64,000 nt of DNA from Branchiostoma floridae. Lineage: Eukaryota. The stretch spans positions 3,130,707-3,194,706 of the forward strand of contig NC_136205.1 of the NCBI RefSeq assembly GCF_015852565.1, read 5' to 3'. Of the stretch, positions 14,495-52,528 are shown one piece after another. The notes below the pieces were generated by a model that worked only from the letters and a program-made list of their open reading frames with translations, had not been told where the DNA came from and did not search any database. Numbering within the stretch: the stretch's first letter is position 1; every line of letters begins with the position of its first letter. The translations under genes were made by a program, and so were the position numbers.

Positions 14495-15217
14495 TTAATA
14501 TAAAAGATCACTCACACTCGTCTTTGTTGCGGCGATATCTTGCCTGATTTTTGCGGTGTGCAGTAAGCGGTGAACTATGACAACTGTTCCGTCGTTACAC
14601 CGTGTCAGTGCCGTGTTGTACAGAGCAGTAGCTCTGGTCAAGTCTCTAGTGTCTCTAGTTTCTGTTCCTCTTTTCAGGTACACGTCGCCTAGACTTTTGA
14701 TCGCTTCAGTTTCTAACATGTTGTTCTTGTTTACTATTCCCTCTACCATTAACTGTGCACATCCAACCAGCACAGAATCTGTATTACCAGAGGTAGCCTG
14801 TTTCCTGTCCACATCTTGAAACTTCACTGCCACCTTTGCAGGTGAAATCGTTTCGTTGTACATTTCTTTCGTTGACTGTTCATTACCATGTGGCCTTTTT
14901 GACGACACCCCTCGTAGAAGTCTCTCCGTGTATTCGCATCGGTGTTTTATACTTTCTCCCTGATCTTCATGGTCACACCTAAACAGGGCAGCAAAGAAAA
15001 GCGACAATGCCCAGTTTAACTTCCCTGCGTCCTTTTCGAGTCTTCCTTTCTCCAAGTCCACGTCGCCCAGACTTTTGAGCAGCTCCACTTCCGCCAGCCT
15101 ATCCATGTCAGCCATGGCGTCCACCAGGGCATGGAGGTAGCCTGTCTCCGCATGGGCTAGTCCGTACTTCCTGCCCTTCGCGTCCGCCTCACGGAGTTTC
15201 TCACAGACCCTCAACAT
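14495..15217 (-). CDS. Possible coding exon (240-aa ORF) that is paralogous to the N-terminal alpha-helical module of the NTase-TPR protein. It could be a 5' exon of the same gene or a separate family member.
   Basis: Two internal segments, EAIKSLGDVYLKRGTETRDTRDLTRATALYNTALTRC and ELLKSLGDVDLEKGRLEKDAGKLNWALSLFFAALFRC, match [36 protein letters not shown] at the start of the 1196-aa ORF. The ATG at 15217 has a GCCATGT context and is preceded by an in-frame stop. A GTGAGT donor motif lies near the 3' end, around 14510. Confidence 0.4.
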   Translation of the reverse strand: MLRVCEKLREADAKGRKYGLAHAETGYLHALVDAMADMDRLAEVELLKSLGDVDLEKGRLEKDAGKLNWALSLFFAALFRCDHEDQGESIKHRCEYTERLLRGVSSKRPHGNEQSTKEMYNETISPAKVAVKFQDVDRKQATSGNTDSVLVGCAQLMVEGIVNKNNMLETEAIKSLGDVYLKRGTETRDTRDLTRATALYNTALTRCNDGTVVIVHRLLHTAKIRQDIAATKTSVSDLLY

Positions 15218-18200
15218 GGCGGACTTCTGCTAAGAGAATGGTTGCAAAACAAATGACCGTTAGTGCACGTGGTCTCCGTGCTAGCTTTATGACTTGAACA
15301 AAGGTTTGAAACAGAAGTAAAAACAGAAGAACATGCAGCCGTGTATTAGAACTGGAAGGATGTCCGTATTTACTATATATATTTACGAACAACCTTCCAG
15401 GTCTATTAATGACGAGCCTAATGGTAAACTATCGTATGCGAGTAGCTTCACACAAGGCGCTAGAGGGAAAACATTCTGCATTTTTGCAGATCGAGATGTT
15501 GCCTTTCTAGTTATATCGGTATCTATATATCTATGTATATACTATGTATACCTATATAGCACCTACGAATGAATGGCCTTGCAATTATATCATGTATGCA
15601 TCAATTACATTTATTCACGGTCAGTCAAACACGTACTGATCATGTCAATATTATCTGTATATCAAATGCTAAGGAGGTGCACTTGGTGACCCCTGCTGAC
15701 CCAAATGCGCTATGCTTTTCTCATACTATACTACTTGTGTTGTTTAGCCAACTCACCCATTGAAGCAGATAAATTTCCATACAGTTTCTTGCTTGTATCA
15801 AAACTCATGGATTTGTGTATATGTATCACCAACAAAAGCATAAGAAAGAGCAAGGCACATTCCCACACAGGGGCCCGGCCGGGCAGCTTTGGGGAACGAA
15901 AAGTATGATATAAAGACACCAAACTATATACAAGATGTGAAGAGAAGAATAAGTCCCGGCCATCATTTGTGAATGATTTTACGTATACATTCTTATTTTT
16001 CGTTTCCACAAACAGCCAGGCCGGGTCCCGGTTTGTAAATGTGACGTCAGCCTAAACTGCATGGGCTGTCTTGGCCTGATATCACCTGGCATTTTCTGTC
16101 ATAATGTACTTAGTCCACGTATCCTGTGCCAAAATTAGACGATTTGATACTACAATATATTTTGAATGTTATCAGCATCTAGACCAACACAAATTGTCCT
16201 ACCTTCTTGGGTGTCACCTGTGCCCCGTGTCTTCTTGAGAAAAAACGGTCTCTTGGACCGGAATTTTAAGGTCCAAACACGAAAGCTCAACTGCGAAGTT
16301 CAGTACACCCCTCCTCTTCCGTTGTCCAATCTGTTACCTGGCTACATGGATGACCTTTGACTTTTGTTGACGTCATTGCATTCATTACGGGTCACGCGAC
16401 AAGCAGGGGACAGGTATCAAAGTTCCACCTGCGTGTTTTTGTTCCGTCAGGTGTATTTACCTTGGCGGTATCGGTGGTTTCTAAGAAGGCCAATTTTTAC
16501 CTGGCCGAGAAAGGTGGCTACAACACTTGACTTTCAATTGTAAACGTTACCCGTCAACCGATCTCATATCATCTGTACGCACCTGCTACATGTCGGGCCA
16601 GTACAATGGGAGTTAGTATGAGTGTGCTAGCTATATAGTTGGTAATGTTACATCTAATTTGCACAATCAATAAGAAACAAGTATAATTACGTAGATGGTA
16701 TATTACGCTGTTGAATCTATCGTACACATTTTAAAGCAAGGTTTCTCTTTATTGCATTATATTGCTCTGAAAATATGTTTCCTATCTCAGACAGCAAACT
16801 CTATTGTAGCCATTGAGGCCGGTAAATAAGACAAGTGACTTTCTTGATTGGTGGCATTCAGCTGTAAGTTGCTTTGTATCCAACCAGTCATGATATGGTG
16901 CGCAAAATGTTTGGATAAAATACTTGAGAATGCGAACAGTTAAGTTAAGTTAAGTAGCGTTACCTGATGTTCACACTTACAAAAGAATAACACACTCGAA
17001 CAAAAGATTACTCACCTGACACCTGGCTCCCTACATAATGAAAAATGTGTTCCTCAAGGGTTCAAGGAAAACAAAAACATAAGTCACGTCATATCACATG
17101 TCTTGACAAACACTGGTGGTGTTGTGTGCGGGTCTCGATTATGCGTTTACACTGAAAGCTAGAGTTCCATGATCTCAAACCTTCTCGAGTATTACAAATG
17201 ATTGTCATTGGTTATGCAAATGAGGTCTTTATTCACATGATGATGCAGATAAAGTCTTTATGTTCCTGTTATATTAGCTGTATTTGCTTCCATGGGAATA
17301 ACACAAGAAGAATGACAGTCTCATAAAAGCAACGAAGCCTATTGTAGCATTCACTCATCAATTGCGTCAATAAGGCCATGATTTGCATCATTCATGTCTA
17401 ATGGTGGTCAGGTTTTATTGAAGCCCTAATGCTAACTAGGAAATTCGGGTAATTTACCGTCTATGAAATTATACTTTTTTTCTTACTGATTATGAAAATT
17501 GGTTCTTCTCTTTCTCAGTTACATATCACACATGGTTGAATAGTACTGCAATTTGATTTGTAAACTTTCCTCACGTATTCCGAAAATTAGATCCTAATTT
17601 GCCATTATATTCATTTAGTTATGCCAATTATCCCTGAAGCTACATACATACCAGATAGGACGACGCATCAGTCCCTTATGGAATCATTTTTCTTTCACGA
17701 TTTTCACCAAAAAAAAAACGCTTCCGAACAAAAGACGTCAAATATTTTCATCTTGATTTATTTCAACATTCTATAGAATTGCTGTGACTATGATACACGT
17801 ATTTACATGTTAATCTATGGAAAACGCTAGAAATAAATTGTGCCGGAAACAAACATCAGCTCTATAAAACGTGATATAAAAAGCTTGATCTCTCTTTTAC
17901 TTTTTACGTTCTAGACCAGTACCTATGTCGGCCCGTTGAAAAGGATCACCAGGTTACAGCATGAGTAAACAAATTTTTGTCTTATTTCCTTTGTGGTAGT
18001 ATCTAGATGGTAATTACACAGGATATTGGTTCTTGTGTGTTACATAGAACTACATGTACAGCAAGAATTATGATAGAAAAATAGTCGTGGCAGACAGGCG
18101 AATATTTACAGCAATTTGCCTTTAAAAATCTATATGTGCACAAATAAAATAAAAACAGTTTCTCCATGGCGTTACAAAGACACAATCATCTGAAACTTAT

Positions 18201-19621: not shown

Positions 19622-19918
19622 TCATCAGGGCAGGTCGTGAGCAGGCGGCGGTGGCGGCCAGCTTTCCCTCAGCCCCTGCAGGAAATGTAGACTGCTCTCG
19701 TACTCATTTCCGCCAGGCGGCGTTCCTGAACCGTCGTCGCTGCTCGGCGACTCGTAGAACGCGTTGGGGGAGGGCGTGGGGATTTCGTAGACGTTTTCTG
19801 ACGAGTGCGCGAAGGGACGAGCGCGCGTGCGCGCTTCTAAGCCCAGGGTGGTGTTCTTGTTCTCAAAGACGACATCTGGCATCTCGACAACCTGTTGTCT
19901 GTTGTTCTGTTGTTTCCT
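19622..19918 (-). CDS. Terminal exon encoding the cytoplasmic tail (KQQNNRQQVVEMPDVVFENKNTT...ENVYEIP...NEYESS...WPPPPPAHDLP*), including the TGA stop.
   Basis: The acceptor is tacaaatag|G, with AG+G=Arg completing the TKR stop-transfer. The ORF runs to a stop at 19622-19624. The tail contains tyrosine motifs (NVYEI, NEYE) and a PPPPP run. Confidence 0.6.
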
Positions 19919-20497
19919 ATTTGTAAAAAAAACGAAATAAAATGACAATGATCGTTATTGCGCAATAACAAAATCTTTATTGCATGTACATGTCCAACAT
20001 AGGTTAAATGCATTTTTTCAGGTATCTCCTCCTGGACTATGTAACTCAAGTAGCAGTCTTAAGAGGTTATGTTATGATCTAATCTTATTCTCTTTCTTCT
20101 TCTTAAAACGGTCGGAGAAATTTACATTCTCTCTATTACATTTCAGATTTTAGATGGCATCATTGACTAAACGTGAACATTTTATGGTTTGCGCATATCC
20201 GTGGATATATAATAAAATAAAGTCAAGTAATATGAAATATAACTAAAATGCAAGTTAACGCTCTGAACGTCTGTCCAGCTTCCACAGGACAATTGCACTC
20301 ACGTGACTCGACCGCCATATTGGATGATTAAACTTGGATGTTGTCATGTGGCGATCACGTGAACAACACATGCATAAATCCGCAAATCTACAGGTTTCAC
20401 TCCTTCAGATTTACATAACTAGTTTCGTGGATGTGACGTCATTTGCAAGACGCTGACAGAACAACAACAACAACAGTTAACAAAAACTAAGACGCAC

Positions 20498-20594
20498 CTT
20501 TTGGTGAGAACGACAGCCAGCATTATTGTACAGAGTACAAGCACTACTACGCCTGCGCCAACTGCTATCCCAATGATCAGCACCCAGTTGGTAT
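20498..20594 (-). CDS. Exon encoding a single-pass transmembrane helix (DTNWVLIIGIAVGAGVVVLVLCTIMLAVVLTKR).
   Basis: A 23-residue hydrophobic stretch is followed by K R. The acceptor is ttttgcag|AT, with G+AT=Asp continuing from the CUB exon, and the donor is AAAAG|GTGCGT. Confidence 0.7.
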
Positions 20595-21937
20595 CTGCAA
20601 AATGAAAAAAAAGAAGATTTAGCCACTCTCTCATCGGCAAAACTGTTGATTGTCGTGCTATCATTGGTTAGTTTGAACTTAGTCTGTTAATAGTAAAAGA
20701 CAGTCTTGAAGAACCAAATTTGACACAAATGTTGTCAAACACGTCTGAGGAAAAATTAGATATAGAGACATGTCTATATCTGTCCATGAGCATTTGGGCG
20801 CATTTTGAATTTAGAGTTCCCACGAAATGGAATACCCATTTTGGTGATTTTCTTACAAGGGATAGACTGAAAACTTAACATCGCCGGTCCTCTTTAAAAC
20901 TTACAGGCTGTCGGGTAGAGCCAGTAACTACAACCACAAAATTATTTTCTTTTCAATTTTTGGCTTTAATAGAAAACTATGAGTTAAAAGATTAAACAAT
21001 AACATACTGAAATCCTGGTGAGTGTGCGGTTCTATGAGGAGATCGTCCTTCGGTGGCCAGCACGCTTCCCGCCATTCAGCTGACTCGTTATACACAGTGG
21101 TCCGGTTAAGAGCTGTGTGTGACAAACATTTAACATTGTAACAGCTGAACGTTTGTTAAAATAATAACACAACACATTTTCCTACGCAAAGCTCCCCATA
21201 ACCTATATAATATCCAGTGGGGATGTCCTGCAAACCGGGCTGAGGTTTCAACTTTTGTGGTGTGGCCTCTTATAACCAACTGTCAGCCAAACATAAAATT
21301 GGCTGCATGACTTCTCTGTAAGTAAAACCAATTATCTGATTGGCTGACGGATGGTAATAACGGTCACGGCCACAAAAGTGGAAACCTCAGCCCAGTTTAG
21401 TATGGCAATTCATGAAAGAAACATGCAATAACCAAAAGCTAGCTGTACTTGTTGAAGTTTGACAAGTTTTGACAAGTTTTATTGCAACATGTACGACATA
21501 GCAGCTGATAGCTGAATTGCGTCGACATTCACATAATACAAACAGCTGTAGTAAAAAGAAAGGGCACACTATTAAAAACTTTACATAATGTCCTACAAGC
21601 AATTCTTTACTAGAATATTGTAGGGTATTCGTCTTAAAATTTATAATAAGTATAAAATATCAAGTTGCCATACAAACGCTGTATCATTACTGAGTAATAA
21701 ACATATCAGAAGCGGTTTCTAATGAGTAATTACTTATTCAGTAAATATACCAGGTATGGTATCGGTGAGTTCTTATGTCTGTTCGGCAAAATGGAATGTC
21801 TAGTTTCTCAGAACTGCGAGTGGTACGTCCCATCGTTTGCTGTCTGGATGGGGGGAGCCAGTCCCGGAAGTTACAGACTCTTCAATGAAGTATTCACATA
21901 GAACGACCTTTGAAATGGGACATGACCTTCAACTGAC

Positions 21938-22261
21938 CTTGATATGTCATGACGAATCCACGCCCCGTCTTACTTGACGCAGACCGGAAAGAGATATGTA
22001 GCGTTTCGGCACAGGTGATCCCGACATCCGGTATGACGTCACCCGTGAAGGTGGTCCTGAACGCAGCGGCTGGATCCTCCATGGCGATGACGTCACCATC
22101 CGACAGTTGGAGCATGGTGAAGTCTAGATCGATCACGTGATATTCGGGCACCGTGATTGTCCACGTGCATGTCACGTGTTTGGTGTAGTTGCCAGGGAAA
22201 CCAGGAGAGTAGATGAAGCCGTCTGAGTCTGTCAAGTTCCCGCCACACGCCCCCATAGTAG
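21938..22261 (-). CDS. Exon encoding a CUB domain (CGGNLTDSDGFIYSPGFPGNYTKHVTCTWTITVPEYHVIDLDFTMLQLSDGDVIAMEDP...GFVMTYQ). It is phase 1/1.
   Basis: The CUB hallmarks are present (CGG.lt...G.i.SPgyP..Y.....C.W.I.vp.g..i.L.F..f.le....C..D.v.i.DG). The acceptor is ctccag|CT, with G+CT=Ala, and the donor is CAAG|GTCAGT. Confidence 0.85.
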
Positions 22262-22760
22262 CTGGAGTATGCAAATTATATGCAAATAATATGTAAATAA
22301 AACGTACGTATTTGTGTATTCCAGATCATACATACATTTTGCATAAAACAGATCGGAGGTACTACGTGGACTAAGTAATCCGCGACTAAGTAATCAACTT
22401 TATGGATGAAAGTTGCCCACATTGTAGCTGCAAATATAGCATGCAAATCATATGCAAATATCAGTATAGTATGCAAATCACGTGTATGTAAATGTCATAC
22501 AAAATTTTGCATAATACAAACGTCGATCTATTATGCTGGGTCCACAACTTGGCGGGTGTTTGCGGGAACGGAAATGATAATTGGAAGACCACAAAACTTG
22601 GAAAAAATAGCCATGGCATCTCTTGACATTTTGAACATTTTGTTCCCGCAAACAACCCTGTAGGGCTCGAGCTCGGTTAAAAAATGTGGCTACTTCCAGT
22701 ATAAATAAAGGTCATTGATTGATTGATTGATCTAGAACTATGTTTAAAAGCGCCCCCTAC

Positions 22761-23063
22761 CGTCGTATATGGTAAGTCTGTTGCTATTCTCTAGGTAGCC
22801 GCTCCCGCAGACTTGGTCCGGGTCGCCCGCACACTGGTCCTGGCACTCTCGGTCCTTCCGTCGGTTCCCCAGCCGAGTAAAATGCTCGTCCTGTCCGCAG
22901 AAGCACTCCGTTCCTCGCTGGGCCCCGGCGTACTTGTACCCAAGGCCTCGGCAATGTTCGGTACACATCTGAATGGTCATCGCGAATGTCCGGAGGTACT
23001 CGTGATAGAAGACTCGGTCGTCGGGGAGAAGGAAGTCTCGGTAGCAACCAAGATATCCGGGTA
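22761..23063 (-). CDS. Exon encoding a WSC domain (PGYLGCYRD...MTIQMCTEHCRGLGYKYAGAQRGTECFCGQ...CQDQCAGDPDQVCGSGYLENSNRLTIYD). It is a symmetric phase 1/1 exon.
   Basis: The WSC consensus is present (GCY.D...R.L......MT.E.C...C...GY.YAG.Q.G.EC.CG....C...C.GD..Q.CGg.....Y). The acceptor is tttttcag|TA and the donor is GACG|GTAGGG. The phase joins to the previous exon as G+TA=Val. Confidence 0.8.
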
Positions 23064-23464
23064 CTGAAAAAGAGCACAAGAATGTGTTGCTATTGCTCAT
23101 GAATGTAATGTTTATTACTGGCATATCGTGTCCTCCAGTAGATATCTATACGTTAATGTTAAATATATCTTCAAATCGATATATAATGCGGATTTCCTGC
23201 GTACTTGATTGCTGCTTCTCGCCGCTATATGTAACGGATGTAGGTGGCGCTTTTGTGGCTATCACAATCCCAAACGTGGCTAAGTTTGTATCCCCCTCGT
23301 CTCGGTTCATCACTGGAGTTACCTCCTAGATCCACCGGGTCAAAAAAGGAAACTCCAATATACCAACCTGATGAAATTATCTTTGCATCTTCAAAACTCT
23401 TGTTAAAATTTAGACAAATATAATTTTATTATCTCGTCATCATGCGTGTTATTTCTGAACTTAC

Positions 23465-23660
23465 CGTGACAGATAACTCCTGCGTCCTGGCTGTGATCAC
23501 AGAAGTTAGTCTCCCACCCCCCGTGCGCGCACGCCCCCAGGTTGTCCTCGGACCCATCACACCGCAGCTCGCTCAGCCAGATCCGCCCGGCCCCGTGACT
23601 GAACCTCCCGCCGCCGTGAGCCCACGCCGCCCCCGGGAAACCCAGCTGCCGGCACGCCAC
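23465..23660 (-). CDS. Exon encoding the C-terminal half of the SRCR domain (VACRQLGFPGAAWAHGGGRFSHGAGRIWLSELRCDGSEDNLGACAHGGWETNFCDHSQDAGVICH).
   Basis: The motifs CRQLGF, IWLdelrC.G.E..L..C.H.GWg.hnC.H.qDAGViC are present. The acceptor is tttctag|GTG and the donor is CACG|GTAAGT, leaving phase 1. Confidence 0.8.
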
Positions 23661-24862
23661 CTAGAAATGGGTTCGTTATGGTCAAGGTGTAGATTAAATC
23701 TACACGGTAAAGTTTTAAACATTCACAACCATAATTTTACCCTAACGGTAAGTTTGTAGGGACGGTAATAGTCAAGGAAAGTCAAGTTGACTAACGTCCG
23801 TGGAATATTCATGGAGGTAAAACTTCTGAACATGCTATGGTCCCGATTTTTGGGTGTCAGATAGCTCTTGTACTCCGAAAGAAGTGACATACTAGTAAGT
23901 TTGGGCCCCCTAGCGGCTAGTCTTGGGATAGCAGTGGCATTTTTTTATATATTTGCTTTCGGGCAGACGAGGACATTGTGGCACAGAATCTCAAGTTGCA
24001 AAGTACAGACAGAAGGCAAAGGTAGGATCGAAGTCAGGTACCAATTTCTACACAAGCCGCCCCCGGGAAACCCAGCTGCCGACACACGACCTTGAGTAGG
24101 AGCGAGGGAAAATGGGTTCGTCATGGTCAAGGTGTAGATTAAGTCTACTGAGTAAAGTTTTAAACATTCAGAACCATAATTCTATGGTACCGGTAACTTT
24201 GCGGGGACTGATAAATTTACTGTAGACGGTCACATTTCGAAACCGGGTCCCGGGCAGACAGCTTTAGGGAACGAACAGTATAACCAATGAGCTTTTATCA
24301 TGACAAAGGCTTGGTATAATGTAAAAGTCAAATAAACACATAGAATATCAAAACAAATAGTCATTAGCGTAATTCGTGTATATATCTTGATAAACACTTA
24401 TCATCATTGCTTAAACGTTGTGAATGCTTGTTACGCATGCAGTCCAGGCAGTTAAAGTCAAATCTACGGTAGCCTGCAGGGACAAAGTAAGATTAATCTA
24501 CACGAGACCTACGGGAGACGTGCGGAAAAGGGTTCGTCATGGTCAAAGTGTAGACTAAACGTAGGCCTGCAGGGGCATTCACGGATAAATGTACGATAGG
24601 TCTACAGGGACTGTCACTGAAGAGTAGCCTAGAGTCAGAAGTAAAGCTTGCCCTTACATTTCACGTGTGTTGACCATTCTTCCAAATCTACGATAAGCTG
24701 TTGAGGACACTAGCGGATAAATGTACGATAGGTCTACAGAGACAGTCAAAGAGTAGCCTAGAGTCAAGTAAAGTTTGCCCCTACATTTCACTTGTGTCTT
24801 TTCTTCAAATCTAAGGCAAGCTGTTGAGGACACCTGCCCGTGAACTTTGAACTTTGACCTAC

Positions 24863-24990
24863 CTCTGCGTCCTTGATTCCCCACCGATCGTCGCAGACCG
24901 TCCCCCACTGCCGCCCCATGATGTCCTTGTCCCTGACCTCCAAACGACCTTCAAACGGGTTCCGTCCATCTACAAGTCTCAGCTCCAACA
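24863..24990 (-). CDS. Exon encoding the N-terminal half of an SRCR domain ([42 protein letters not shown]). Its start is phase 1 and its end is phase 0.
   Basis: The SRCR signature is present (RLVxG...GRLEV...WGTVCDD.W...DA). The acceptor is tttttctgctcag|TG and the donor is GAG|GTAGGT. Confidence 0.75.
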
Positions 24991-26907
24991 CTGAGCAGAA
25001 AAAGGTTTCAGAAAATCAGATTTAAGTTTAAGAAAGAAAGAAACTAACGGTGTCATTGAAATTAGATATTTAAAGTTTCTCCATCATTCATGCAAAACTT
25101 CTGTGAAAGCTTCTGTGAAATCTGTAACGGGAGGGGTCCGTTTTGCGATAACCGTTCTGAGGTGGATGCGCATGGCTTTTGTCATCGTATGTATTACAGT
25201 GAACTCATCCAAAACAAGTTTAGACCTTGTATACATCCATATAACTGTGATTGAAGATGTACAGATATATATTTCGTTCCGCACTGTAGTTTGACAGCGC
25301 ACGAAACTCACGACAGGTTTTGGCTTGCGGCCTAATAGAACGTTTGGAGAATGGACCTCTCCCGTTACCCCTTTTGTGGGACAAAACAGCAACTCGTCGT
25401 GACGTCACAGAAAAAGTACAATACTTAATCTAGCTAATGAGGGGTGCTTGTTGTGATCAGAGAGTACACAGCAGACAATGCAGCTGATTACAGAGCTATT
25501 TTCGGAAAAGATAATGTGTCTACGTGACTGACAGCAAACGTAAAATTTTACTGGCACTTTACTGCAATATCATTTGTCCATTTGACATATTTTTATGAGA
25601 CTAAAATAGCATAAGACCAAATAAATTATAATTCCAGAGGTTGATTTTTAATGAACTGTTCGAAAGACATCTTGCTCAACTAAAACTATAGCTTCTTTGC
25701 AACTAAGTAGGATAGGCTGTAGTTTAGTTACCCGCCTGTAGATGGCGCTTTTCCCTTGGGAAACCATTTTTGTCGATCTAAAATACTGTAGCAACACTCA
25801 CAATATCCTACACTGTCAATCGACCCACCAATCTTTCACTGGAGGGAAGTAACTCTCCATTACTTAATACAGACACAAGCTGTTGCCATGGCGACAAAGC
25901 CGGTAAATTGTGCGAATCGGACAACAACAACAAACAGTGGTAGGCCATGTTTTGTCAACAAACGTTGTCATGATAGGGTTAACATGAAGACAGGCCGGGT
26001 CCACTTCGCTTCGGTACTTGAGCCGACTAAGTTGTCCTTTCTTTACGTCACATCAACCGTACCTAAGCTGGATTTCTATAGCCTCCATCAGGCCTTCCTA
26101 CAAGGGTGCGGGGATCGTAGAATTCGGGGGAAAATTGGGAAATTGGCCAGGGGAGTCAGTCCACGCGTAGGTTCATGTTTCCCCTCCGGCTGCACGGCCG
26201 GCCAACTCCTCTGGTAGCAAAACTTTCCTGGAAATTACTCTCCCTATAATAGTCAGTCTTCGTGCTTAGCATAAAGAAAACAGTACAGTACAGAATAGAA
26301 TGCCCGATAAAACCCCATCAAACACGTCAAAAGCAGCCAATGCCAACTCTGCTTGGATTGGATAGGTCGGTGCTTGGTTGGGAGTAGCCTAGAATCCAAT
26401 GATACTAGCTCCCGTTTACTCCTATGATCGCATTAAATGGTGACTTTCCTTAATGTTTTTTTTTTCTTTCTATTCTTCAAAATGAATAATTGGCTGGCGT
26501 CAACGACCAACTTCCAACCGCACGTGACTGTTATAGTTGGCGCACGACTAATTCCCAACCATGGTCTAGAGAAGGACGGGAGGCCAAGATCGGCTAAGTG
26601 TGACAGGGGTTTGCTTAAATCACATGCTAGGCAAGTGACTAACCCATTCATAGGCGTCTTTTTGTCTGCGCTGACATGGTTTGATATATAGACTATGTGT
26701 TACTGTCAGAGATCGTGTCAAGTAACAGGACAACAATGTAGTCTGGTCACCGAGCTATGAGCCCGTGACTTCCAGACAGTCTGCAATGCTGGTGACTTCC
26801 TAGAAATACGTTTAAACACACAGGGTATGATAACATGTAGGTCTATAAAGTGATTTTATAAGCAGCTATAAGTAGTGCGTTTTCATCCAACAACACCTGG
26901 TCACCTA

Positions 26908-27372
26908 GCTAGCCTGGGTACCACCCGGATAGTAGTTCGCTAAAGCTAAGGGCACAACCCGCCGTACGTGCAATTTGTCCGTACGTTTTTTGGGAGGCCA
27001 CGTCCGCCACGTATTTCTGAAAACGTTCAGGCTGTACAGGACAGGCGCGTCGTCCGTACTGGCACGTACGGGGGCTAATACGCAGCCCGATGGCACACAA
27101 AGTTTTGCCTGCACGTAACGTTCTACGGCGTGTCTGCGTGCTCCAAAATCAGTCGGATTCCCTAAGAGTTTGTACGGAGGCGGTACTTACCACTTACGGA
27201 TCCCCAAAGATTGCCCACGTTTTGGCACGTAGACAGCACGTATTTGCACATACGGCGGGTTGTGCCCTTAGCTTAAGACGTTTATTATATACTATATACA
27301 GTCGCTTCTCTGCTTAGTAAAAGCGAACACAGGAGCGAATTACTACCCGGATGGTACCCAGGCTACGGGTCA
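26908..27372. mobile_element. MITE (family 5) with TIRs of about 65 bp (ctagcctgggtaccacccggatagtagttcgctaaagctaagggcacaacccgccgtacgtgc). A short related hairpin lies at 39810-39885.
   Basis: The inverted repeat is directly visible. Spurious ORFs on both strands lie inside it. Confidence 0.7.
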
Positions 27373-28059
27373 CTCCTATTTTCGTCGATATTCTGGATAA
27401 TTGTTTTCGTGGGTTATTTTCATACAGAAGAATTGATACCTGAAGCTCCCATGATAGCCTAAGAAGGGACCACCAGTTCTACGTCCATATCCAAAAGGAC
27501 ATATGCAACCCTAACCATGTTGTACCAACCGGGACTTGGACCTCCGCCCTTTAAAATCCTAAAAATTCTTTGAAACTCACGGTATATCTTACCTCTGTGC
27601 CTGAAGTCTGGCAGAGGAAGCAAGGAGTAACAAATACAAATGAGTTAGTAAGTTAGTTGGTTAGTATCATATAAGGGTAGATACACACAGATAGAACACT
27701 TTCAAGTCAATAAAGGACTGTTAATATAGCTTTGGTTCGTTCAATTGTTATTCAGTACAATTCATTCACTCCCAAGTGCCCATTCAGTCTTTTGTCATGC
27801 ATTTTAGTCAGTCAGTCATCATATAGTCATCCACCCATTCATCCATAATTACATTGCACTATCTCGCTCCCGTCCCCACTTTGAACTAGAAATGACTCTC
27901 GCTATTTTTCTCCCCCCTCTCAGTTTCTCAACTCTCAAGGCGTATTTGATAGCCCAGATTCTAGCTTTCTGTCTCCATCCCCTTCTCTCTCATTCCCTCT
28001 ATCCCTCACACGCAAAACTCTCACAGCGACCAACAACAACACGTATTAGATAGATCAGA

Positions 28060-28350
28060 TCTAGATTCTCGCTCTCTGTCTCCCCTAGCCCTCTCTCTCA
28101 TTCTCTCTATCTCTCTCCCCCTCCCTCTCTGTCCCTCTCTGAACTCTCACGGCGTATTTGATAGACCAAATTATAGCTTTAAATTTCTTTTACCCTTGCA
28201 TCTCTCTCTCACTCCATCTATCTCTACTTCACTCTCAAACTATCTTAGCTTCCACCAACAACCATACGTATTTTGCTACATCAGATTCTAGCTTTCTCTC
28301 TCTCTCTCTCCCCTCCCTCCCTCTCTCCCTCTCTCACTCCTGAAACTCTC
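28060..28350. repeat. CT-rich low-complexity region, (CT)n / (TCTC) with interspersed motifs.
   Basis: Direct sequence. Similar (CT)n blocks occur at 29641-29770 and 34321-34480, and (GA)n blocks at 39275-39375 and 39477-39512. Confidence 0.9.
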
Positions 28351-28599
28351 CCAGCGACCAACAACACCACGTATTTGATAGACCAGATGGTCCAGGAGTC
28401 CCGACAGCCGATGACAAAGGCACGAAGTGGGGGGCGACCTGAGGTGACCCAGGAAACGACCGAAATGTCAGCTTGTTGTTGCGGTGTCACGGACAATAAT
28501 GGCGACGTCGTTAGTGATTTATATCGTTAGTAGAGGGGCGAGGGAACGGCCATATGTGGAGGGGAGACGACAAGGTGACAACAGCGTATCAAGTGGAGC

Positions 28600-28850
28600 C
28601 TGAAGGTGGACTCTCACTGCACTTGGGGCAGCGGTGCGGCACTGCTGGGTTCCTTCACTGCGGCACTGTTTTGTTATTTTCGCAATTCTTATAATTTAGA
28701 TATTGCGTAATACAAAAAAAGTATGACTTAGAAGACAACAAAATACACTAAACGGAAGAAAATTAGTTCTTTATCTCTGAAATTTGTTGAGTCATCTACG
28801 AACACCGCAGTGACGCACCGGTGCCCCAATTGCAGTGAGAGTCTACGTAT
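28600..28850. mobile_element. MITE (family 4) with TIRs ctcactgcacttggggca/tgccccaa.tgcagtgag and an internal gatattgcgtaatac core. Other copies lie at 47450-47720 and 56940-57190, the latter in intron 2 of PLAC8-A. In this copy the element is flanked by 90-bp direct repeats (28510-28600 and 28858-28950).
   Basis: The TIRs and about 200 bp of internal sequence are shared among the three loci. Confidence 0.75.
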
Positions 28851-29649
28851 ATACCTTTAGTGATTTATATCGTTAGTAGGGGGCTATGGAACGGCCATAT
28901 GTGGACTAGAGACGGCAAGGTGACAATAGCGTATCAACTGGAGCATTAAGCTTTCTATTGCAATTGTTTGCAGTGCATGCATATGTGTCGATCTATGTTA
29001 GGAAACAGAATTATAAGATTTGTAGCAAGTCTTTGTCCCGGGGGCACGCAGTGTAAGTATGTATCAAGTTAAAAATGAAGAATGAAGGTATACCATATAC
29101 GTATTAAAGATATAGACTTTTGGACATGGTTTATCTGTGCTGATCATCTGATAATTGTAATATCATTTGTCATATCATTCGTCTACAGTCAGTCTAGTAC
29201 TACAGACCAAAATCTGGCTCGGTGTGAAATCAAAGTTAGAACCTGTCTAGTTAACAGCCCGTGTGACCCCATGTTTTAACTCTCTCGTGTTTTTCCTGTC
29301 GCTACCCTGGTCTTGTGGGGCTTACCCCCTCCAAGCTGCAACAACACCGGTAAAGCTTTTATTTTCCCTCGGCGTTTCGGACATGGGTTGATGACTTCCA
29401 AAAGTGTAGCCAGGTGGGGACAGTTCCTTTAAACATTAGGTGTGGGTTGTGTTAGGGATAGTTCCTTAAATGTTCTGTGTGGGTTATGTTAGGGATGGTT
29501 CTTTAATATACTCTAAAAAGAATGGATGAGAATGCAACCCGAAAGGTAGCTAATCAATAAATCAACCATGACAATTAATTAACTAATCATTGAAAAAAAT
29601 TGATCGTTTGTCTTGTTAACTAACATTGAATCAGGACTCTCTCCCCCTT

Positions 29650-29687
<38 letters not shown>

Positions 29688-29710
29688 TCTCTCATCTCTC
29701 TCTCCTCTTT

Positions 29711-29770
<60 letters not shown>

Positions 29771-32700
29771 AACTCCCTAAACACAATTTTGACTGTCGTT
29801 AGCATTGGAACCATTCACAAAACGACTAAATAAAGAATAAAAAACGAAGCTTAGAATTCTACCAAGTACATGTAGTACCAACAATCTAGGAAAATTAAAG
29901 GTAATAACTTTAACTACAGACATCTCTTTATCATTGTTGCCCAAGTCTCTTCCAAAACATATATGGATTGATTTACTTCTTGTATTAATAATGGTTTTTC
30001 TTTATCTTTATAACAGTCGCGACAAACAAATCTGATTAATGCGTCCTAAAATGAGATAAAAGTTCTAGGCCACACTTTAGATCAATATCAATGGAACGAC
30101 CCTGGCCGTTGTTCCCTTTGCACACGTGTGCGTTTTGGGCGACCGTCCAAAGCCAAGGCCGGGTTAGAAGGAGCAATTATTTGTACCGTGGCCCAAATCT
30201 GGAGAAGGTCGGGTGTTGGCAAACACACCGCGGCTATTTGGAACATGTTACCAAGGCCGAGACGAGAGGGAGGCACGGGAGAGAAACGTTTAAGGGGAAA
30301 GTGGAAAAGTAAAAATGATATCGAAGCAGTTTGGCTTTTCAAAGAATATATACAGGCGTTTTCATGAAAGAAAGGACTGAATCAAAGAAAGAAGGCAGGT
30401 AAAAAATGAAATAAAATGGATGATTGAATCCGGAAAGCTAGAGGAAAGAAATTTTCAAAGATAGGGAGAAATCTTTTTCTTGATTCTGGAGCGTGTATAG
30501 GACGGACATATGCTCACAGTGCTGGCACAGCTTGAAGAAACCATAGACTCGGCATGGGAGAGAAACGTTTAAGGGGAAAGAAGAAACTTGAAAGTGATTC
30601 CGAACCAGTTCAGCTAAGACTTAGGTCCCATTTCCGAAACAGGGCCTGGCCTGGAAGTTTGCGTAGTGTTTATCATCGAAAATATAGAAATTATGCTACT
30701 GACCATTTTTTTCGATTATTGTGTTTTGTTTCCTTTCTTATAATATTTTTCGTTTCCGAAAGCTACCCGGCCGGGTCCCGGGTTGGGAATTGGGACCTAT
30801 ACCGTACTAATGTGTTAATATTCAACTCAGGTCGGGATAAAATCTCTACCAGACTCCCACCTGACCGAATAGTAATAGGGGAATTTGGCCAAGTTAGGAA
30901 TAGTCTAGTCGGAGTTTATGATAGGCCTAGGAGTGACTCGAGGGCCCGGCTGGCAGTGATAGCTGAATAGACTGCAAAAGACTGACTGAGGTCTCATGGC
31001 AACTTATTTGCCAAATACAGTGGATTCCAATTATTCGTATTACGCCTTTTTGGATAATTCGGGTAATTGCATAGAATTGCGAAATCCCAAACCATTTGCC
31101 ATTCATTCTAATGTATAAGGCTTCGCAGAATTGGATAACCCCCGGTCTCAAACTTCGGGTTTTGGGATAGAATTACGTCAAATTATAGCGAATAAAATGG
31201 GAAAATATACGCTAAAACTTACAAAATGAGGCCAAAATCAACCAACATCTGTATGTATGAAGGCATTAAAGCATGAAAAGGACCGTAAGATAGGTAGATT
31301 CCACAGAAAATCTTTCCAATACCGCTGTGGTAGCATGCGAACATTGGTTAGGCGCCATTTTTTGTACTTCTTTTTTTTTTTCATCCAGCCGACACCTCTG
31401 CTTGGAGACTAGCGTGATAGAGAAGATAGAGGCTATGTGGATTAGGAAAAGTATGAAAAAGAAAGCTAATCAAATCATAGAAATATAGAGAAAGAAAACT
31501 GGAAAATAAACACAGAACTAAAGAAAAAGAGAGGGCAGGTAGAGAAAAGGAAAAAAATGCGAGGAAAAAGTGTCGAGGGATTTAAAGAATAGATAGAGGC
31601 GGTTTTGCGAAAGACAAGATAGAACTAAAGAAAGAAGAAGACAGATAAAAAGAAGAAAAATTGGTGACTGAATGAATAGGAAAAGAAAGACAAAAAAGAC
31701 AACAACAACAAGAAATATAGATAGATGAAATTCACAAAGAAAATGTTTTTCTCGATTTGGGAGCGAATGTAGGGTGAACATATGCTCACAGCGCTAGCAC
31801 AGCTTGAAGAAACCATACACTCTGTTTAGGAACAAAGGAGTCCATTCAATATTCATGTACATCTTGTCGAAAATAACTCATGCATTGGCTTGTGACGGAA
31901 ATATAAACTTTCCGGGTCCCGCCGGTGTCCGGTGTACGGATGGGATAGTCTCAAACATCCAGACGGTTCAGGACATTCTTAGACAGAAACAATTGTTTAG
32001 GCAGATTTAGGGACAGATTAGAGAGGAGATTAAGAGAAGATCATGCCCACTAATCCGTTTTTAATAAGACACCTGCATCGATTGGGATTTAGTCCCATTG
32101 TGTCTTAACATTTTTCAATCCCAAAGATGTAGGTAATGCTCATTGTAATGTTGCTGATGATCATACAAAAATAAGACAATGAATAGACTGTGAAAAGGGG
32201 TATAAAAATACGTTACACAATTTTTTTCTGTATTTTGTTCTCTCTTAAACTCATTCACATACGTATATCCTTGACGGTAAACCATGGCTACGTCTCTATA
32301 AATTGACAACGATATGTGACAAATAAAAGAGTTAAACCAAGAAAGAAGAAGCAAATGAAAGAAAACGATTAAGCCCAAGGCAATGTGTTTCTTTACTCCA
32401 ATCAACGGAATAAAGCCTATAGCTAGATGTCTTTTGTTTTCGTCACTTATTCCGAAGGTATAAGAAAATCTAAGACATCATGAAGAGATAAGCAAGTCTT
32501 CTTTTTATTTGTATGAATGGAATATTATAGAATCTTTCACGTGGACAGGGAGGTGTTGCTTTTGGTGAGTCAGTTTTTATTTTCGTGTTTAGGTACACAG
32601 GGGACAATGGCAGGAAGTTAGGTCAAAGGTCCCAGAATAGGTTATCCCATTTCCTGTCTTCAATTTCCTGCTATGTGCTTTTAATTATGCCTTATGAGAG

Positions 32701-34363
32701 CAAGGAGCTTTTACTCCTTGATGAGAGCAAATAGGAAAATGCAAAATCAGTGGAAAAATTCATTATAATGAATAAAAGAAGAAGTTCACACCAAAAAACA
32801 ATTTCCCGTTGGCTCGGGACCTTCGATTTCTCGTTAGTATCACGAAATGATTTGTGACCAATAAAAATGATAATTTTGTTATTCTCCTTGAATGTATCGA
32901 TCGGGACGACTCAAGGATGACTCATTTGTGTCAAGCGTCGCCAAATAACGATCATTTACGGCCCTACAAGTATCGACTGCTTTTTATGTAGTTTCAAAAT
33001 TCGAATCTTTATCTTGTTACCTCAGAAAAGAAGGTTATGTTTTGGTGATATTTGCTTGTGTGTTTGTGTGTGTGTGTGCATGTGGACAGCATAACTGGAG
33101 AAGTTGTGAATGGATACTTGAAATATTTGATAGACGAGTCTAAATTTCACTGTATGTGTCAAAGAAAAATAATGTCTTGGTGTTCATTTTTCTAAGTATA
33201 AAATATTTTACAAACGAACCAAAACATCTAGACATTTTGTACAATACCGTTCACCAAAATGTACATCCATGAAAGTTCACAGTGTCAACAAAATTAGACG
33301 TTTGTCTTTTACAAATATAAGATATAAACATAAGCCTTACGATGATTTTTATTATGAAAACATGTTTTAGGATTTGGAAACATTTTGATTGAATTAGTGT
33401 CTGCGACAGACAGATTTTACGACCTCGTCCATGGCCGTAAAACGTCAGATCGCGTGACGTCATGAGGGAATCCCCAGGGAGATGGCATCGGTTCAATGTC
33501 ACGCTAAAGTAAGAACGTCTGTTCGAACTGAAGTATCTGGGTCAAAAGGGAACGGTGTGTTGTGTACTTTCTTTTAAATATTTACTTTCGTGAAAATTAA
33601 AAATCAAACCGCATACTTTCACTTTCTGAGACACCGTTATGCATATGATGAGGCTTGTTCAGTATTCTCCAAGCAGAGGTTCGGCTCCGGTCATTTTTAA
33701 ATGCGTTTTTATCGATCGCGAGCTGTATACATTGTACCTTTTTCTTTGACCCGCACACGTGAAGAAACCGTTATAGAATATAAAGCCCGGCAGAAACGTA
33801 TAAAAACGTGTAAAAAATGCTGGAGCCGAACCTCTGCTAGGAGAGTACTTGTTCAGCACAATTTTGTTCTTAAAACTTGAGTACAAAATTATGAATAGGA
33901 ATAACCGAAACAAATCTAATACACCGATCTTATCATTATATCCAGGTTTGGTTTGTTTTTTTTGTTAGAGTAGAACTAAAACGCAGCAATACACCCATAA
34001 ACCCATCAGTATTCAAATTAACGGCCTCTCTTCCAACAACAAAGTAGAGAAACATTGCTGTTTCTCCACCCAACATCTGCTTAATTATAGATAACTCCTG
34101 TCCTTGGATGAGATATCACAGAAGAGTCAGTAGAGGAGTGACTGTTTTTTGTCACGTGTAATTGGTGGAACCGCCCGACCATGACCGGAGCGCACTTCGT
34201 GATCTATCCAAATGAGAAACAAATGGTGTTTTCCGTTTCAGTCAGAGTTTAGCCTTGAGGGTTGAAAAGATGTGCCAAAAATCAGTCCCAAGTGTCCTTT
34301 CACCCATATCTATTAAGGGCTATTCTCTCTCTCTTTTCTTCTTTCTCTCTCTCTCTCTCTCTC

Positions 34364-34407
<44 letters not shown>

Positions 34408-37400
34408 CTCCGCTCTCTTTTCTCTCTCTCTTTGTCTCTCCCTCTCTCTCTGTCTCTCTCTTTCTCTCTCATTAGTCGCACGGTCGTCGTGCGATAACTA
34501 ACTATGACTGAGAGCACTCGTGGGCTAGCCGTACGTGTGCCGTACAATATTCGGCTGTCTCGTAACCTAAAATGGTGTGTTAGATCTTTGTCGGCTATTA
34601 GTTCTGTCACAGCCTAGCTTGGAGATTTTACATCATCAAAATCGTACGACTTGTCTACGACGACGCATGTATAGAGAGCCGTTTGGCCGCAAATGGGGCA
34701 ATTACTGTCGTATTGAGGTCACCTGAGTTAGCGCCGAATGGCAAGCCACCACAGATCCTTGCGATTTAGAATCGCCTATATCAAAGCTCCTCACAATTCA
34801 GCCCTTGCAATTGGCTGTGAATAGAGCTTTCGGCCCACCCAATAACAATAGTAAAACTTGACGCACCTATTAGCCTTGGGAATTTAACTACCGTATCTAA
34901 CGAGGGGCTTCCTTACCTCTAATCGTAACCACTCTCATTCTACACCATTTATAGACTGCACAAGGAGCACATTACGGTTTAAGATTGACGTGTAACAACA
35001 TGTTAACTTTCTCTAGCCAGACTATTACTGCAATGAAAAACGGTCAACTGTCGCTTCTTTTAGCCTTGCAAATCTATTCTTTAACTACCGTATCAAATTA
35101 CAAGGAGCTCCCTTTACCTCTAATTGTAGCCACTCCCATTCTACACCGTTTATAGACTGCACAAGGAGCACATTACGGTTTAAGATTGACGCGTAACAAC
35201 ATGTTAACTCTCTCTAGCCAGACTAATACTGCAATGAAAAACGGCCACCTGTCGCTTCGCCCGCCGCTGTTTCTACGTTCGGCGCCCCCCTGAGTCTTAA
35301 AAATCAGTTACAACAATTTCCATCAAGTTCAAATCAAATTACAACCAACGGATAATCTTTCAGGTCGATTACTAACGATCTTAGGGCGCCAGTTTTGGCT
35401 GAGACCCTTTTGCTTTGTGACTTAGGGGGGATAAAAACATATTCAGTTTGTGTAAGACCAGGATTTGCTTGTGAGTGGGGTCAGATCAAGAGGATTTCAG
35501 ACGATAATGTAGGGAGCTATGGTAGCCATGGTAACGGTTGCCCTTGGTAACCATCCCTATCAATCAGTAGCGTTTAACTGATCAAATGGAACAAGACGGG
35601 TTTTTTTCCACTGGCAGAAGAAAACTGTCTATAAGACAGATACACCTTCTTTTCGTTAAATGATTAAAACACTACTACACCAAAAGCGTACTGGCCGAAA
35701 GTTATCAACCCTTAAACAAACAAATCAATGGAGTGTGTTTGACTGAAAGCGTAATTAAGTAGTTTTGAAGTACTCATTGTGTACATGTACTTCAAAAATA
35801 ACACAGCAAAAGCATATTTCGAAGAAACCCGAATCACTATAAAAACATATCATTTCACAAATAAAATGCTACTTTTACGCCGCGTAAAACTACACGCACA
35901 CAAACACACATACTCATACACACAAACATCTGTAATAGTTTGAAGCCCCTTGTTTTTCTTCTATCATCTGAACATATTTCACCGTGTAAGAATGACTTGT
36001 AGACCCCATCACTCATCACAGAACTCGCATTACCATGCGTTTTTACTTTAAGGGTCAGACCATCTGACCAAAATGCCTCTTTAAGCCCAAACAGACACCC
36101 TGTATATCATCGACACACACCTAGAAGCCTCTAGGATATAGGTATAACATATCTCAACTCCCGTGGGGAATTTCTAGCACGATCTGTTACCGATATTCAC
36201 TGTAGACTCGGCGGCCCAAAAGAGCTTTGCTACCGAAGCCTGTATAATCTCTTCACGGATGCTTAGAATTTCAAACATCTGTCAATCTACTAGGACGATT
36301 TTTCATACCATTCATACGTAGAAATGTGACAGTTTAGAACATCCTTACAACACAATTTTGAAGACTTATCAACATGGGTTGTGTCAGTCTTTTTTCTTTC
36401 TTTGAGAATGACACAATATACCAGGTGGTCATCGCACAAGGGGTACAGTATTCAGACTACCGGAAAGATTAGCTTTTCGACCCCGTTTGGAATTTCTCAC
36501 TGTGTTGTGGTCAAGTTCAAAGATGGATACCATGCTGCCCCTAACCTCGGAGCATCTCGGCCACCGGACGCTTAACAGACCGCCTAAAATACACGCGAAA
36601 AGTGCCTATGTAGACTACTGTAACCTACCAACTAGGGACCAAGACAAGGGTTAAACAATATAAAGTTTATAAAACGTACCTCCTTCGCATGTTTTCACTA
36701 GTAGGAGAGCGTAGAGGTACAAGCACAATGCCTGGTTCGCCATTTCAGGAAGCAATTCGTCACAGACGCTGAAAGAGAGCCGTTTTGCTTTTCTTCTGCG
36801 TAGCACTCAGCGGCCTTGTTGTTGTTCAATGGAGACCGTCGACGAAAGTGATTTCTCTTCTTCGGCTTGCCCCGTAGTGATCTCTTAGAGCATGTGGTTT
36901 GAATCAGCTTCTGTGGGCGATGCTCCAAAGACAAGAAGCTGATACGCTACTGTCCTTGATAACGAGTTTTCTGCACCTCAGTCAAAGATCTCGAGACAAG
37001 TGGTTGTGTGGGAATCGAACCAGTGTCCAGGCGGTGAAGAATCTCTCTTTCCACCGTAGGTGGCACCGTAATGACCGACTACTCTGTCACACGACTCCCC
37101 TTTATAAATGATTCGGGAGGAAATTTGAATCGGGGGTGTGCGGTCTTGCGTGGAACGACGGGATGACAACTCTCTTTACATCAGGAAGCTACGCGTGACT
37201 TATGGGGGCTTAGCTGAGGTAAAAGCCGCTATGGGGTCTCCTCTTCATCAGACAGCGTCGAGATCTTATCAGACGACACATGCATAATCTCTAGCCTGAT
37301 GACAACTCTCTCGAATCTCTGTGTTGTTTGTTGCTTGATATGCCGTTTACAGAAGATACGAGACAAAGAAAGCACTTAGAGATCGTTTTGCTGCCGTCAC

Positions 37401-48233: not shown

Positions 48234-48339
48234 GTCCCTCTGTGGCATGGTTGAGGCGGATTTCAGAATCTAGCCCTTTTCAAGGTCAAAATGAAAACTT
48301 GATTTGGCAGTCGTACGAGCCACAGAACACAATCCCAAC

Positions 48340-49944: not shown

Positions 49945-50014
49945 TTTGATTAGAAGTCATTCACATCAAAGCGCACCGATCACCAATCAGCAGAGATGGC
50001 GGGCGGCATAGACT

Positions 50015-50095
50015 TCCTGACACTTTTGACCAATCGCTGACGTCACGCGCCCATAAGTGCCACGTGACGTGGGTGATTGGTCTACGAAATTGTGA
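50015..50095 (+). promoter_or_regulatory. Palindromic promoter-like module, CCAAT - CRE(TGACGTCA) - CACGTG E-box/CRE-like - inverted CCAAT, lying 70-150 bp downstream of the GPCR stop codon.
   Basis: The sequence gaccaatcgctgacgtcacgcgcccataagtgccacgtgacgtgggtgattggtc is followed by a possible donor, aag|gtaagg, at about 50153-50158. Confidence 0.35.
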
Positions 50096-50509
50096 GGAAG
50101 ACCGTAGCAGAACAGTCGAAAAATTGTTGCGCTCTCTTTTTGACTTAAATCTAAGGTAAGGCTTAGTGTATTACCAAATATAAACAAAGATGAACATTCA
50201 TAAAAATACAAATTGAATTTGTAAACATTTGACATTTGAAAAATGGAGACAAGAGATGTAATGCAGGAACACAAATGGAACACAAAAAAACAGAAATGAA
50301 ATAAATAAATGAACATATTTGGTTTCACCTTGAAGTTTTAGCGTATGGCTAAAATGCTTTAAGCGTAAAGCTACAAGTAAGTTTTAGAAAAAATCATATT
50401 GATCGTTGGTTTTCAAAAACAGATCTTTAAAAATGTGTCACTTCACTAAATTTAGAAAATAATTTTGACACTGCCAGATAAAACGGACAGACAGGATGTA
50501 AAGATAGTT

Positions 50510-51981: not shown

Positions 51982-52049
<68 letters not shown>

Positions 52050-52056
52050 CGTGTGC
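51982..52056. repeat. Compound (TA)n(GT)n microsatellite.
   Basis: The sequence reads tatatatatatatatatgtgtgtgtgtgtg... Confidence 0.95.

Positions 52057-52325: not shown

Positions 52326-52528
<203 letters not shown>

Follow-up and report, generated by a model that had tools for sequence, protein, structure and literature searches.

What kind of receptor is encoded between positions 19622 and 24990 of a 64,000-nucleotide window of the Branchiostoma floridae genome (RefSeq assembly GCF_015852565.1, contig NC_136205.1, positions 3,130,707 to 3,194,706; “the window” hereafter means this whole stretch of DNA), and how far does its resemblance to Kremen, the Dickkopf co-receptor, extend? A sequence-only reading had described this stretch as a Kremen-like receptor in which an SRCR domain replaces the kringle. 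Our data show that the stretch is the 3' seven-eighths of an SRCR-WSC-CUB receptor gene. We regard it as almost certain that this is one eight-exon protein-coding gene for a type I membrane glycoprotein, located at 36743-19625 on the minus strand of the window. The interpretation that we favor, and consider probable, is that of a mosaic SRCR-WSC-CUB receptor gene on a Kremen-type WSC-CUB base, with a ligand that is probably not Dickkopf.

The eight exons, when joined, encode 502 amino acids in one unbroken frame, and the product contains, in order, a cleavable signal peptide, one group-A SRCR, a WSC, a CUB, a 35-residue glycosylated stalk, one transmembrane helix and a 95-residue cytoplasmic tail. 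Exon 1 (36743-36680; all exons are on the minus strand) carries the start codon, the signal peptide MANQALCLYLYALLLVKTCEG and one additional nucleotide, and was identified by its phase-1 end, its GT donor, the N-termini of orthologous proteins and a tblastn match of 100%. The first part of the SRCR (residues 22-64) is encoded by exon 2 (24990-24863, phase 1 to 0) and the second part (residues 65-129) by exon 3 (23660-23465, phase 0 to 1), with both exons supported by Pfam and by their splice borders. Exon 4 (23063-22761, phase 1-1) encodes the entire WSC, residues 130-230, with eight cysteines, and exon 5 (22261-21938, phase 1-1) the entire CUB, residues 231-338; in addition to Pfam support, Kremen1 tblastn matches fall exactly on the former and also on the latter. 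The juxtamembrane stalk, residues 339-373 (ALNRTTVYNESAEWREACWPPKDDLLIEPHTHQDF), comes from exon 6 (21112-21008, 105 nucleotides, phase 1-1), which was recognized from the orthologues; the transmembrane helix, residues 374-405, from exon 7 (20594-20498, phase 1 to 2), placed by hydropathy; and the cytoplasmic tail, residues 406-502, from exon 8 (19916-19625), which ends with the stop codon TGA at 19627-19625. The codons interrupted by introns (at the slash) are those for Val22 (G/TG), Val130 (G/TA), Ala231 (G/CT), Ala339 (G/CT), Asn374 (A/AT) and Arg406 (AG/G). The extracellular modules of the receptor are thus each encoded by one exon or a pair of exons with phase 1 at both outer ends, the hallmark of a protein put together through exon shuffling.

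The six minus-strand exons of the sequence-only reading are real (exons 2 to 5, 7 and 8, each with an AG acceptor and a GT donor), and their junctions stay in one frame to the TGA with none that breaks it. Its expectation that a signal-peptide exon would lie above position 25000 on the minus strand was also borne out, by a single exon 11,689 bp upstream, and Pfam detects the SRCR, WSC and CUB domains, at scores well above chance, in the conceptual product, which contains a single transmembrane helix (19-residue window, mean hydropathy 2.9). The exon set was incomplete, however: two of the eight coding exons, exon 1 and the stalk exon, had been missed, and the real product is 56 residues longer. 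The codons Val, Ala and Asp that had been placed at the domain boundaries fared accordingly, with Val130 and Ala231 being real and the “Asp” at the CUB-to-transmembrane boundary an artifact that stands in for Ala339 and Asn374. The matching phases had been offered as strong internal evidence for the model, yet the phase check was passed despite the skipped stalk exon, which was invisible to it because the exon has symmetric phases and a length that is a multiple of three, such that the frame is kept.

The gene is already known: it is annotated, its protein is in RefSeq, its orthologue has been named and its N-terminal half has been catalogued. The 502-residue product is identical to RefSeq XP_078585749.1 (“DMBT1-like”, Branchiostoma), and the best database match is B. 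lanceolatum CAH1248286.1, also of 502 residues, which is named “KREMEN2” and carries SRCR, WSC and CUB Pfam tags. One-to-one orthologues are present in three Branchiostoma species, with 93-95% identity to those of B. lanceolatum and B. belcheri, and full-length 502-residue models exist for B. belcheri, B. lanceolatum (two annotations) and XP_078585749.1; the stalk exon is found in every full-length orthologue. The B. lanceolatum locus (OV696701.1) matches the window exon for exon: its eight exons are ordered alike, equal in length and bordered by AG and GT, and they join to give exactly CAH1248286.1; its first intron, of 10.3 kb, is at the same position as the 11,689-bp first intron of the window, and its stalk exon is at 23606-23710 of the extracted locus. 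Comparison of the window gene with its B. lanceolatum orthologue by the Nei-Gojobori method yielded an overall ratio of nonsynonymous to synonymous substitutions (dN/dS) of 0.084 at a dS of ~0.39, with regional values of 0.075 for the SRCR, 0.042 for the WSC, 0.085 for the CUB, 0.025 for the stalk and 0.071 for the tail. This is a functional gene under strong purifying selection on every part, including the stalk and the tail.

The public names given to this single gene conflict (KREMEN2, DMBT1-like, SSC5D-like and cubilin-like), and the B. floridae RefSeq annotation, whose fragments are ~98-99% identical to the window product, splits it into a 235-residue “SSC5D-like” protein containing SRCR and WSC (XP_035660183.1) and a 270-residue “cubilin-like” protein containing CUB and the transmembrane helix (XP_035659805.1). 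The former ends in read-through of intron 4 (...YDGKGRL), and the corresponding read-through in the window (22700-22763) gives ...TIYDGRGRF followed by a stop codon; the latter begins at an internal methionine of the CUB exon. We read this two-way split as a misprediction, and a soluble SRCR-WSC isoform produced by intron-4 read-through is possible.

The resemblance to Kremen lies in the membrane-proximal half of the ectodomain. Kremen1 and Kremen2 have the order kringle, WSC, CUB and transmembrane helix; the receptor is likewise a type I protein in which the WSC is followed directly by the CUB and then by the stalk, transmembrane helix and tail, and the position of the Kremen kringle is occupied by the SRCR. 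Pfam scores were 62.5 bits (E 4.3e-17) for the WSC and 55.7 bits (E 7.4e-15) for the CUB. Human Kremen1 was the only protein of solved structure whose alignment ran unbroken from the WSC through the linker into the CUB (100-102 bits, 30-33% identity), and the two proteins share the module borders (PGxLGCYxD ... DxxxGACGGN ... GFxxxYQA) and a linker of equal length. The WSC cysteines at positions 136, 163, 167, 183, 185, 203, 207 and 215 align with Kremen1 C122, 147, 151, 167, 169, 186, 190 and 198, both CUB domains are without the second canonical disulfide, and an N-glycosylation sequon after GACGGN is common to both. When the region from the WSC to the tail was used as the query in a word-indexed protein search, whose index is too coarse for distant relatives, opossum Kremen1 was the only non-amphioxus match. 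An AlphaFold model of the ectodomain, computed from an alignment of two orthologues, one Kremen1 fragment and 36 single-domain fragments, reached a predicted local distance difference test score (pLDDT) of 81 and a predicted template modeling score of 0.69 as the best of five, and its best Foldseek match was the Kremen1 structure 5FWS (E 2.5e-22, 216 columns, root-mean-square deviation (RMSD) 2.3 Å). Based on this superposition, the WSC and CUB are predicted to adopt the orientation that they have in Kremen1. The receptor plausibly shares the Kremen WSC-CUB chassis.

The determinants of Dickkopf and LRP6 binding present a different picture. In the Kremen1 complex, DKK1 is sandwiched against the kringle and the WSC (Zebisch et al., PMC5014086), with contacts at D88, D90, W94, Y105, W106 and Y108 of the kringle and D125, N140, E162, S163, Y165 and D201 of the WSC, and a glycan on the kringle abolishes DKK1 binding (PMC5014086). 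No kringle was detected by Pfam in the product or by tblastn of Kremen1 residues 30-114 against both strands of the 64-kb window, and the receptor signal peptide joins the SRCR directly. We also considered a hidden kringle exon and rejected it, as a tblastn search of the whole window with opossum Kremen1 at E values of up to 50 matched only the WSC and CUB exons. In the alignment to human Kremen1, one of the six WSC contacts is conserved, D125, the salt-bridge partner of DKK1 R191 in the complex (PMC5014086); the other five are changed (N140F, E162Q, S163R, Y165T and D201S), and a five-residue insertion adjoins the D201 position. Within the CUB, the Ca2+ ligands D263 and D266 are conserved and the third, D306, is replaced by alanine, and the loop R307-I308-N309 that faces LRP6-PE2 is S-S-K. 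Judged from its sequence, the receptor fails the defining tests of Kremen family membership and is probably not a Dickkopf receptor of the Kremen mode; its ligand is probably not Dickkopf, because the kringle and five of the six WSC contacts with DKK1 are missing.

Two points weigh against the interpretation that we favor. The contact residues were defined in human Kremen1, so their loss here is weaker evidence than it appears. The interdomain geometry of the predicted ectodomain may be borrowed, since the alignment included a Kremen1 row and 5FWS predates the training of AlphaFold2, and the five models spread over pLDDT values from 57 to 81. The likeness to Kremen1 is weaker domain by domain: when the domains were scored singly, the CUB gave 33-35 bits against Kremen1 versus 46-60 bits against neuropilin-2, PCPE-1, MASP-1 and cubilin-like CUB domains, and the WSC gave 48 bits against Kremen1 versus 58-63 bits against multi-WSC proteins. 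A HMMER scan of representative proteins returned 5,690 matches, the best 150 of which were all multi-CUB or multi-WSC proteins; in favor of a Kremen-type module, Pfam found no adjacent WSC and CUB in 15 of these best 150, a ranking in which summed scores hide single-copy relatives. The Kremen tails have no similarity to that of the receptor, and the WSC of Xenopus Kremen2 is interrupted by a phase-0 intron (PMC3927609), whereas that of the receptor is a single exon. The label “Kremen-like” is apt for the WSC, linker and CUB as a unit, in both sequence and predicted fold, and fails for the kringle and for the DKK1 and LRP6 residues; the single-domain scores weaken it.

The head domain was recognized by Pfam as an SRCR with 97.8 bits (E 4.9e-28; gathering cut-off 26.1) over the full profile. 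It contains six cysteines (Cys54, 67, 98, 108, 118 and 128) and is encoded by two exons, 2 and 3, with a phase-0 intron between them. Group-A SRCR domains are defined by six cysteines, lacking the C1/C4 pair (PMC10855680, PMC3100851), and by two-exon coding (PMC3100851); with its six cysteines and single internal intron, the receptor SRCR belongs to group A, unlike the group-B domains of DMBT1. Its predicted fold is ~1.5 Å RMSD from the SCARA1, SCARA5 and DMBT1 domains in Foldseek, and in sequence it shares 45-54% identity with many SRCR domains of DMBT1-like proteins. DMBT1 and SSC5D resemble the receptor in having SRCR domains, and DMBT1 also in having CUB, but their SRCRs are tandem and of group B (eight cysteines, one exon per domain), they have neither a WSC nor a transmembrane helix, and DMBT1 contains a ZP domain and is secreted. 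With its one group-A SRCR, its transmembrane helix and no ZP domain detected by Pfam, the receptor is not a DMBT1, and the name “DMBT1-like” reflects a best hit and not orthology. SCARA1, SCARA5, MARCO and Mac-2BP share the group-A, six-cysteine SRCR (predicted fold 1.4-1.5 Å from SCARA1 and SCARA5), but they are type II trimeric collagenous or secreted proteins with a C-terminal SRCR and without WSC or CUB.

The CUB has the first canonical disulfide only, plus a third cysteine, C314, and the stalk contains Cys356 and two N-glycosylation sequons, with four sequons in the CUB and stalk together. C314 (exon 5, in a CUB strand) and C356 (exon 6, in the stalk) lie outside the canonical cysteine sets of the domains; all three Branchiostoma species have them and Kremen1 does not, and they may form a disulfide that ties the stalk to the CUB. 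The hydrophobic segment spans approximately residues 379-405 and is followed by KRKQQ, and the tail motifs YEIP, YESP, YESS and WPPPPPAH are identical in three Branchiostoma species. The tail tyrosines of interest are Y449, Y460 and Y479. YxxP is an SH2 binding motif and WPPPP a target of proline-recognition domains. Adaptor signaling through the tail is conceivable from these motifs, at somewhat less than even likelihood.

How might such a receptor have arisen? SRCR-WSC adjacency is a recurrent invertebrate arrangement, as entries of the SRCR-superfamily catalogue (PMC10855680) illustrate. The Acanthaster planci proteins XP_022089105.1 and XP_022089896.1 (Apl028 and Apl029) are described there as signal peptide-SRCR-WSC-Sushi-transmembrane proteins of 429-460 residues; like the receptor, they have a signal peptide, one SRCR, a 3-4-residue linker, a WSC and a single transmembrane helix, but a Sushi domain takes the place of the CUB, and the likeness is one of architecture. 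Acropora digitifera Adi025, listed in the same catalogue (PMC10855680) as SRCR repeats-WSC-CUB-CUB, has its domains in the order of the receptor but differs in having several SRCRs, two CUBs and no listed transmembrane helix. Because SRCR-WSC is recurrent, replacement of a kringle by an SRCR is only one of two equally open histories. In the other, a CUB replaced the Sushi on an SRCR-WSC receptor, and the SRCR-WSC half could equally be the ancestral unit. The sequence-only reading was right about the architecture (SRCR-WSC-CUB-transmembrane-tail with no kringle, by Pfam, hydropathy and tblastn), and “SRCR replaces kringle” describes the domain order well; as an evolutionary event or a functional equivalence it is at most a possibility, given the single-domain scores, the contact residues and the starfish and coral SRCR-WSC proteins. 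The choice is the one that Patthy framed between paralogy, here with Kremen, and “epaktology”, the independent import of the same domains (PMC3927612). A full cephalochordate head swap would have retained the Kremen WSC-CUB-transmembrane chassis, exchanged the kringle for an SRCR when phase-1 exons were shuffled and acquired a tail rich in tyrosine and proline, producing a lineage-restricted receptor for a non-Dickkopf, possibly polyanionic or microbial ligand that acts on LRP5/6-Wnt or on a phosphotyrosine pathway of its own. We consider this scenario improbable; if true, nature would have carried out a head-swap experiment on a Wnt co-receptor.

The interpretation that we favor suggests how the protein may work. 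A rigid Kremen-type WSC-CUB base on a glycosylated stalk would hold the group-A SRCR head off the membrane, and ligand would bind chiefly to this head, which stands in the position of the Kremen kringle. The head, perhaps together with a face of the WSC, would bind a ligand that is probably not Dickkopf. The tail, with its two YxxP tyrosines, a third tyrosine and the C-terminal WPPPPP, could then relay binding to phosphotyrosine/SH2 and proline-recognition adaptors; alternatively, the tail motifs could control trafficking.

Three other explanations of the locus have to be set against this one. The least probable, which we consider very unlikely, is that the B. floridae RefSeq models are correct and that two transcription units encode a secreted SRCR-WSC protein (XP_035660183.1) and a separate CUB-transmembrane protein (XP_035659805.1). 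Both models are near-identical to the window and fall in one 90% cluster, and the read-through of exon 4 matches the end of the 235-residue protein, such that an isoform with intron-4 retention or early polyadenylation is plausible. The internal-methionine start of the 270-residue model, however, leaves an extracellular CUB without a signal peptide, which is flagged by MisPred rule 1 (cited in PMC3927609), and 502-residue models span the supposed break in B. belcheri, B. lanceolatum and XP_078585749.1. The phases fit across that break (G/CT, Ala231), and the eight exons have kept their lengths and are constrained together. It is also unlikely, though less so, that amphioxus uses this gene, by itself or among several, as its functional Kremen, with the SRCR taking the role of the kringle in a Dickkopf-LRP5/6 ternary complex that modulates Wnt signaling. 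This proposal draws on the match of the WSC-linker-CUB unit to Kremen1 in sequence and predicted fold, the status of Kremen1 as the only non-amphioxus match in the word-indexed search, the KREMEN2 annotation of the B. lanceolatum orthologue, the retention of Kremen1 D125 and of the core residue F207 as tyrosine, and the single copy and strong constraint that a developmental receptor should show. However, the kringle, which provides half of the DKK1 contacts (PMC5014086), is absent here, and five of the six contacts on the WSC are replaced, with the five-residue insertion beside D201; the R-I-N loop for LRP6-PE2 is S-S-K, the CUB is closer to many other CUBs than to that of Kremen1 (33-35 bits), and the tail is unlike the Kremen tails.

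The third explanation, which we consider less probable than our own although it carries more weight than the other two, assigns the protein to innate immunity, as a scavenger or pattern-recognition receptor from the SRCR superfamily, which is expanded in amphioxus; microbial polyanions or glycans would be bound by its SRCR and WSC, and its tail would trigger uptake or signaling. The RefSeq names DMBT1-like and SSC5D-like point in this direction, as does the predicted SRCR fold, at ~1.5 Å RMSD from the SCARA1, SCARA5 and DMBT1 domains. In the SRCR-superfamily catalogue (PMC10855680), the N-terminal half of the protein (XP_035660183.1) is listed as Bfl010 alongside the starfish SRCR-WSC-Sushi-transmembrane and coral SRCR-WSC-CUB-CUB proteins, and its supplement gives the InterPro label of WSC as carbohydrate-binding. 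On the other hand, the orthologues are one-to-one, no paralogue near enough to share words was found in the word-indexed search, and no further SRCR, WSC or CUB exon is present within 64 kb. Immune SRCR families are described as expanding in tandem and diverging rapidly; here, by contrast, dN/dS is 0.08 and constraint is not relaxed in any domain. Because the gene is single-copy, has one-to-one orthologues and shows a low dN/dS, we consider a conserved function in physiology or development more likely than that of a diversifying immune receptor, with a scavenger function still conceivable.

The introns contain additional features. Intron 1 (24991-36679, minus strand) contains microsatellites and a 201-bp tandem repeat, and inspection by tblastn and for repeats revealed no kringle and no further coding exon of the receptor gene within it. 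The repeats, at 29637-29770, 34324-34470 and 34883-35258, comprise (CT)n/(TC)n runs of ~67 and 76 units and 1.9 copies of the 201-bp unit, and they account for the “ERERER” and “SLSLSL” open reading frames (ORFs) in the six-frame list. In intron 2, a tandem duplication of ~445 bp (23623-24208) copies the acceptor region of exon 3 (24053-24095 versus 23623-23665, 88% identity), with a partial third copy at 24519-24558. It includes a pseudo-exon at 24090-24042 on the minus strand, with AG/GT borders, that is an 88%-identical copy of the first ~43 nucleotides of exon 3; because it is 49 nucleotides long, it would shift the frame if spliced, and it is in none of the annotated products. This 49-nucleotide pseudo-exon was all that tblastn of the 64-kb window found by way of an additional SRCR, WSC or CUB exon or a tandem paralogue. 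An alternative acceptor corresponding to a B. lanceolatum isoform with a DFRFR insert was rejected, as the window lacks an AG where one would be needed.

Downstream of the receptor gene, an uninterrupted 1225-residue ORF at 1625-5299 (minus strand) encodes more than 14 TPR_10/TPR_12 repeats of the nephrocystin-3 TPR type and resembles a TPR-repeat gene that has no introns or one large exon. A 244-residue ORF at 14498-15229 (minus strand) without a Pfam match has a motif, SLGDVYLKRG...ALYNTAL, that also occurs near the N-terminus of the TPR ORF; it may represent a paralogous fragment or an exon lying upstream. At the B. lanceolatum locus (28486-32542 of the locus extracted from OV696701.1), the downstream neighbor is a gene on the opposite strand for a 281-residue protein with a PARP4_MVP-ID domain; no counterpart of this gene was found in the window, and local synteny downstream may differ between the two. 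Approximately 11.5 kb upstream of exon 1, on the opposite strand, an intronless 549-residue ORF at 48295-49941 (plus strand) encodes a rhodopsin-family G protein-coupled receptor with a long third intracellular loop. Its best relative of solved structure is the alpha-2A adrenergic receptor (236 bits), and the ORF is therefore an aminergic receptor gene. The composition profile and ORF translations show a strong GC skew of +0.42 at 50-52 kb within the region ~50000-52600, together with a (TG)n run near 52.0 kb and a long ATT/AAT-type trinucleotide run at ~52.3-52.5 kb.

The locus is a clean textbook case of phase 1-1 exon shuffling, with a different head domain on a shared WSC-CUB base. It also illustrates that matching phases are by themselves no proof of a complete exon model, as a symmetric 105-nucleotide exon was skipped unnoticed, and it exposes conflicting public names and one RefSeq annotation that cuts the gene in two. 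The Kremen analogy is fair for the membrane-proximal half of the protein and was already implicit in one public name, and it carries no evidence of Kremen function. If the protein did act on Wnt/LRP6, or bound Dickkopf without a kringle, it would have a bearing on how Kremen recognizes its ligands.

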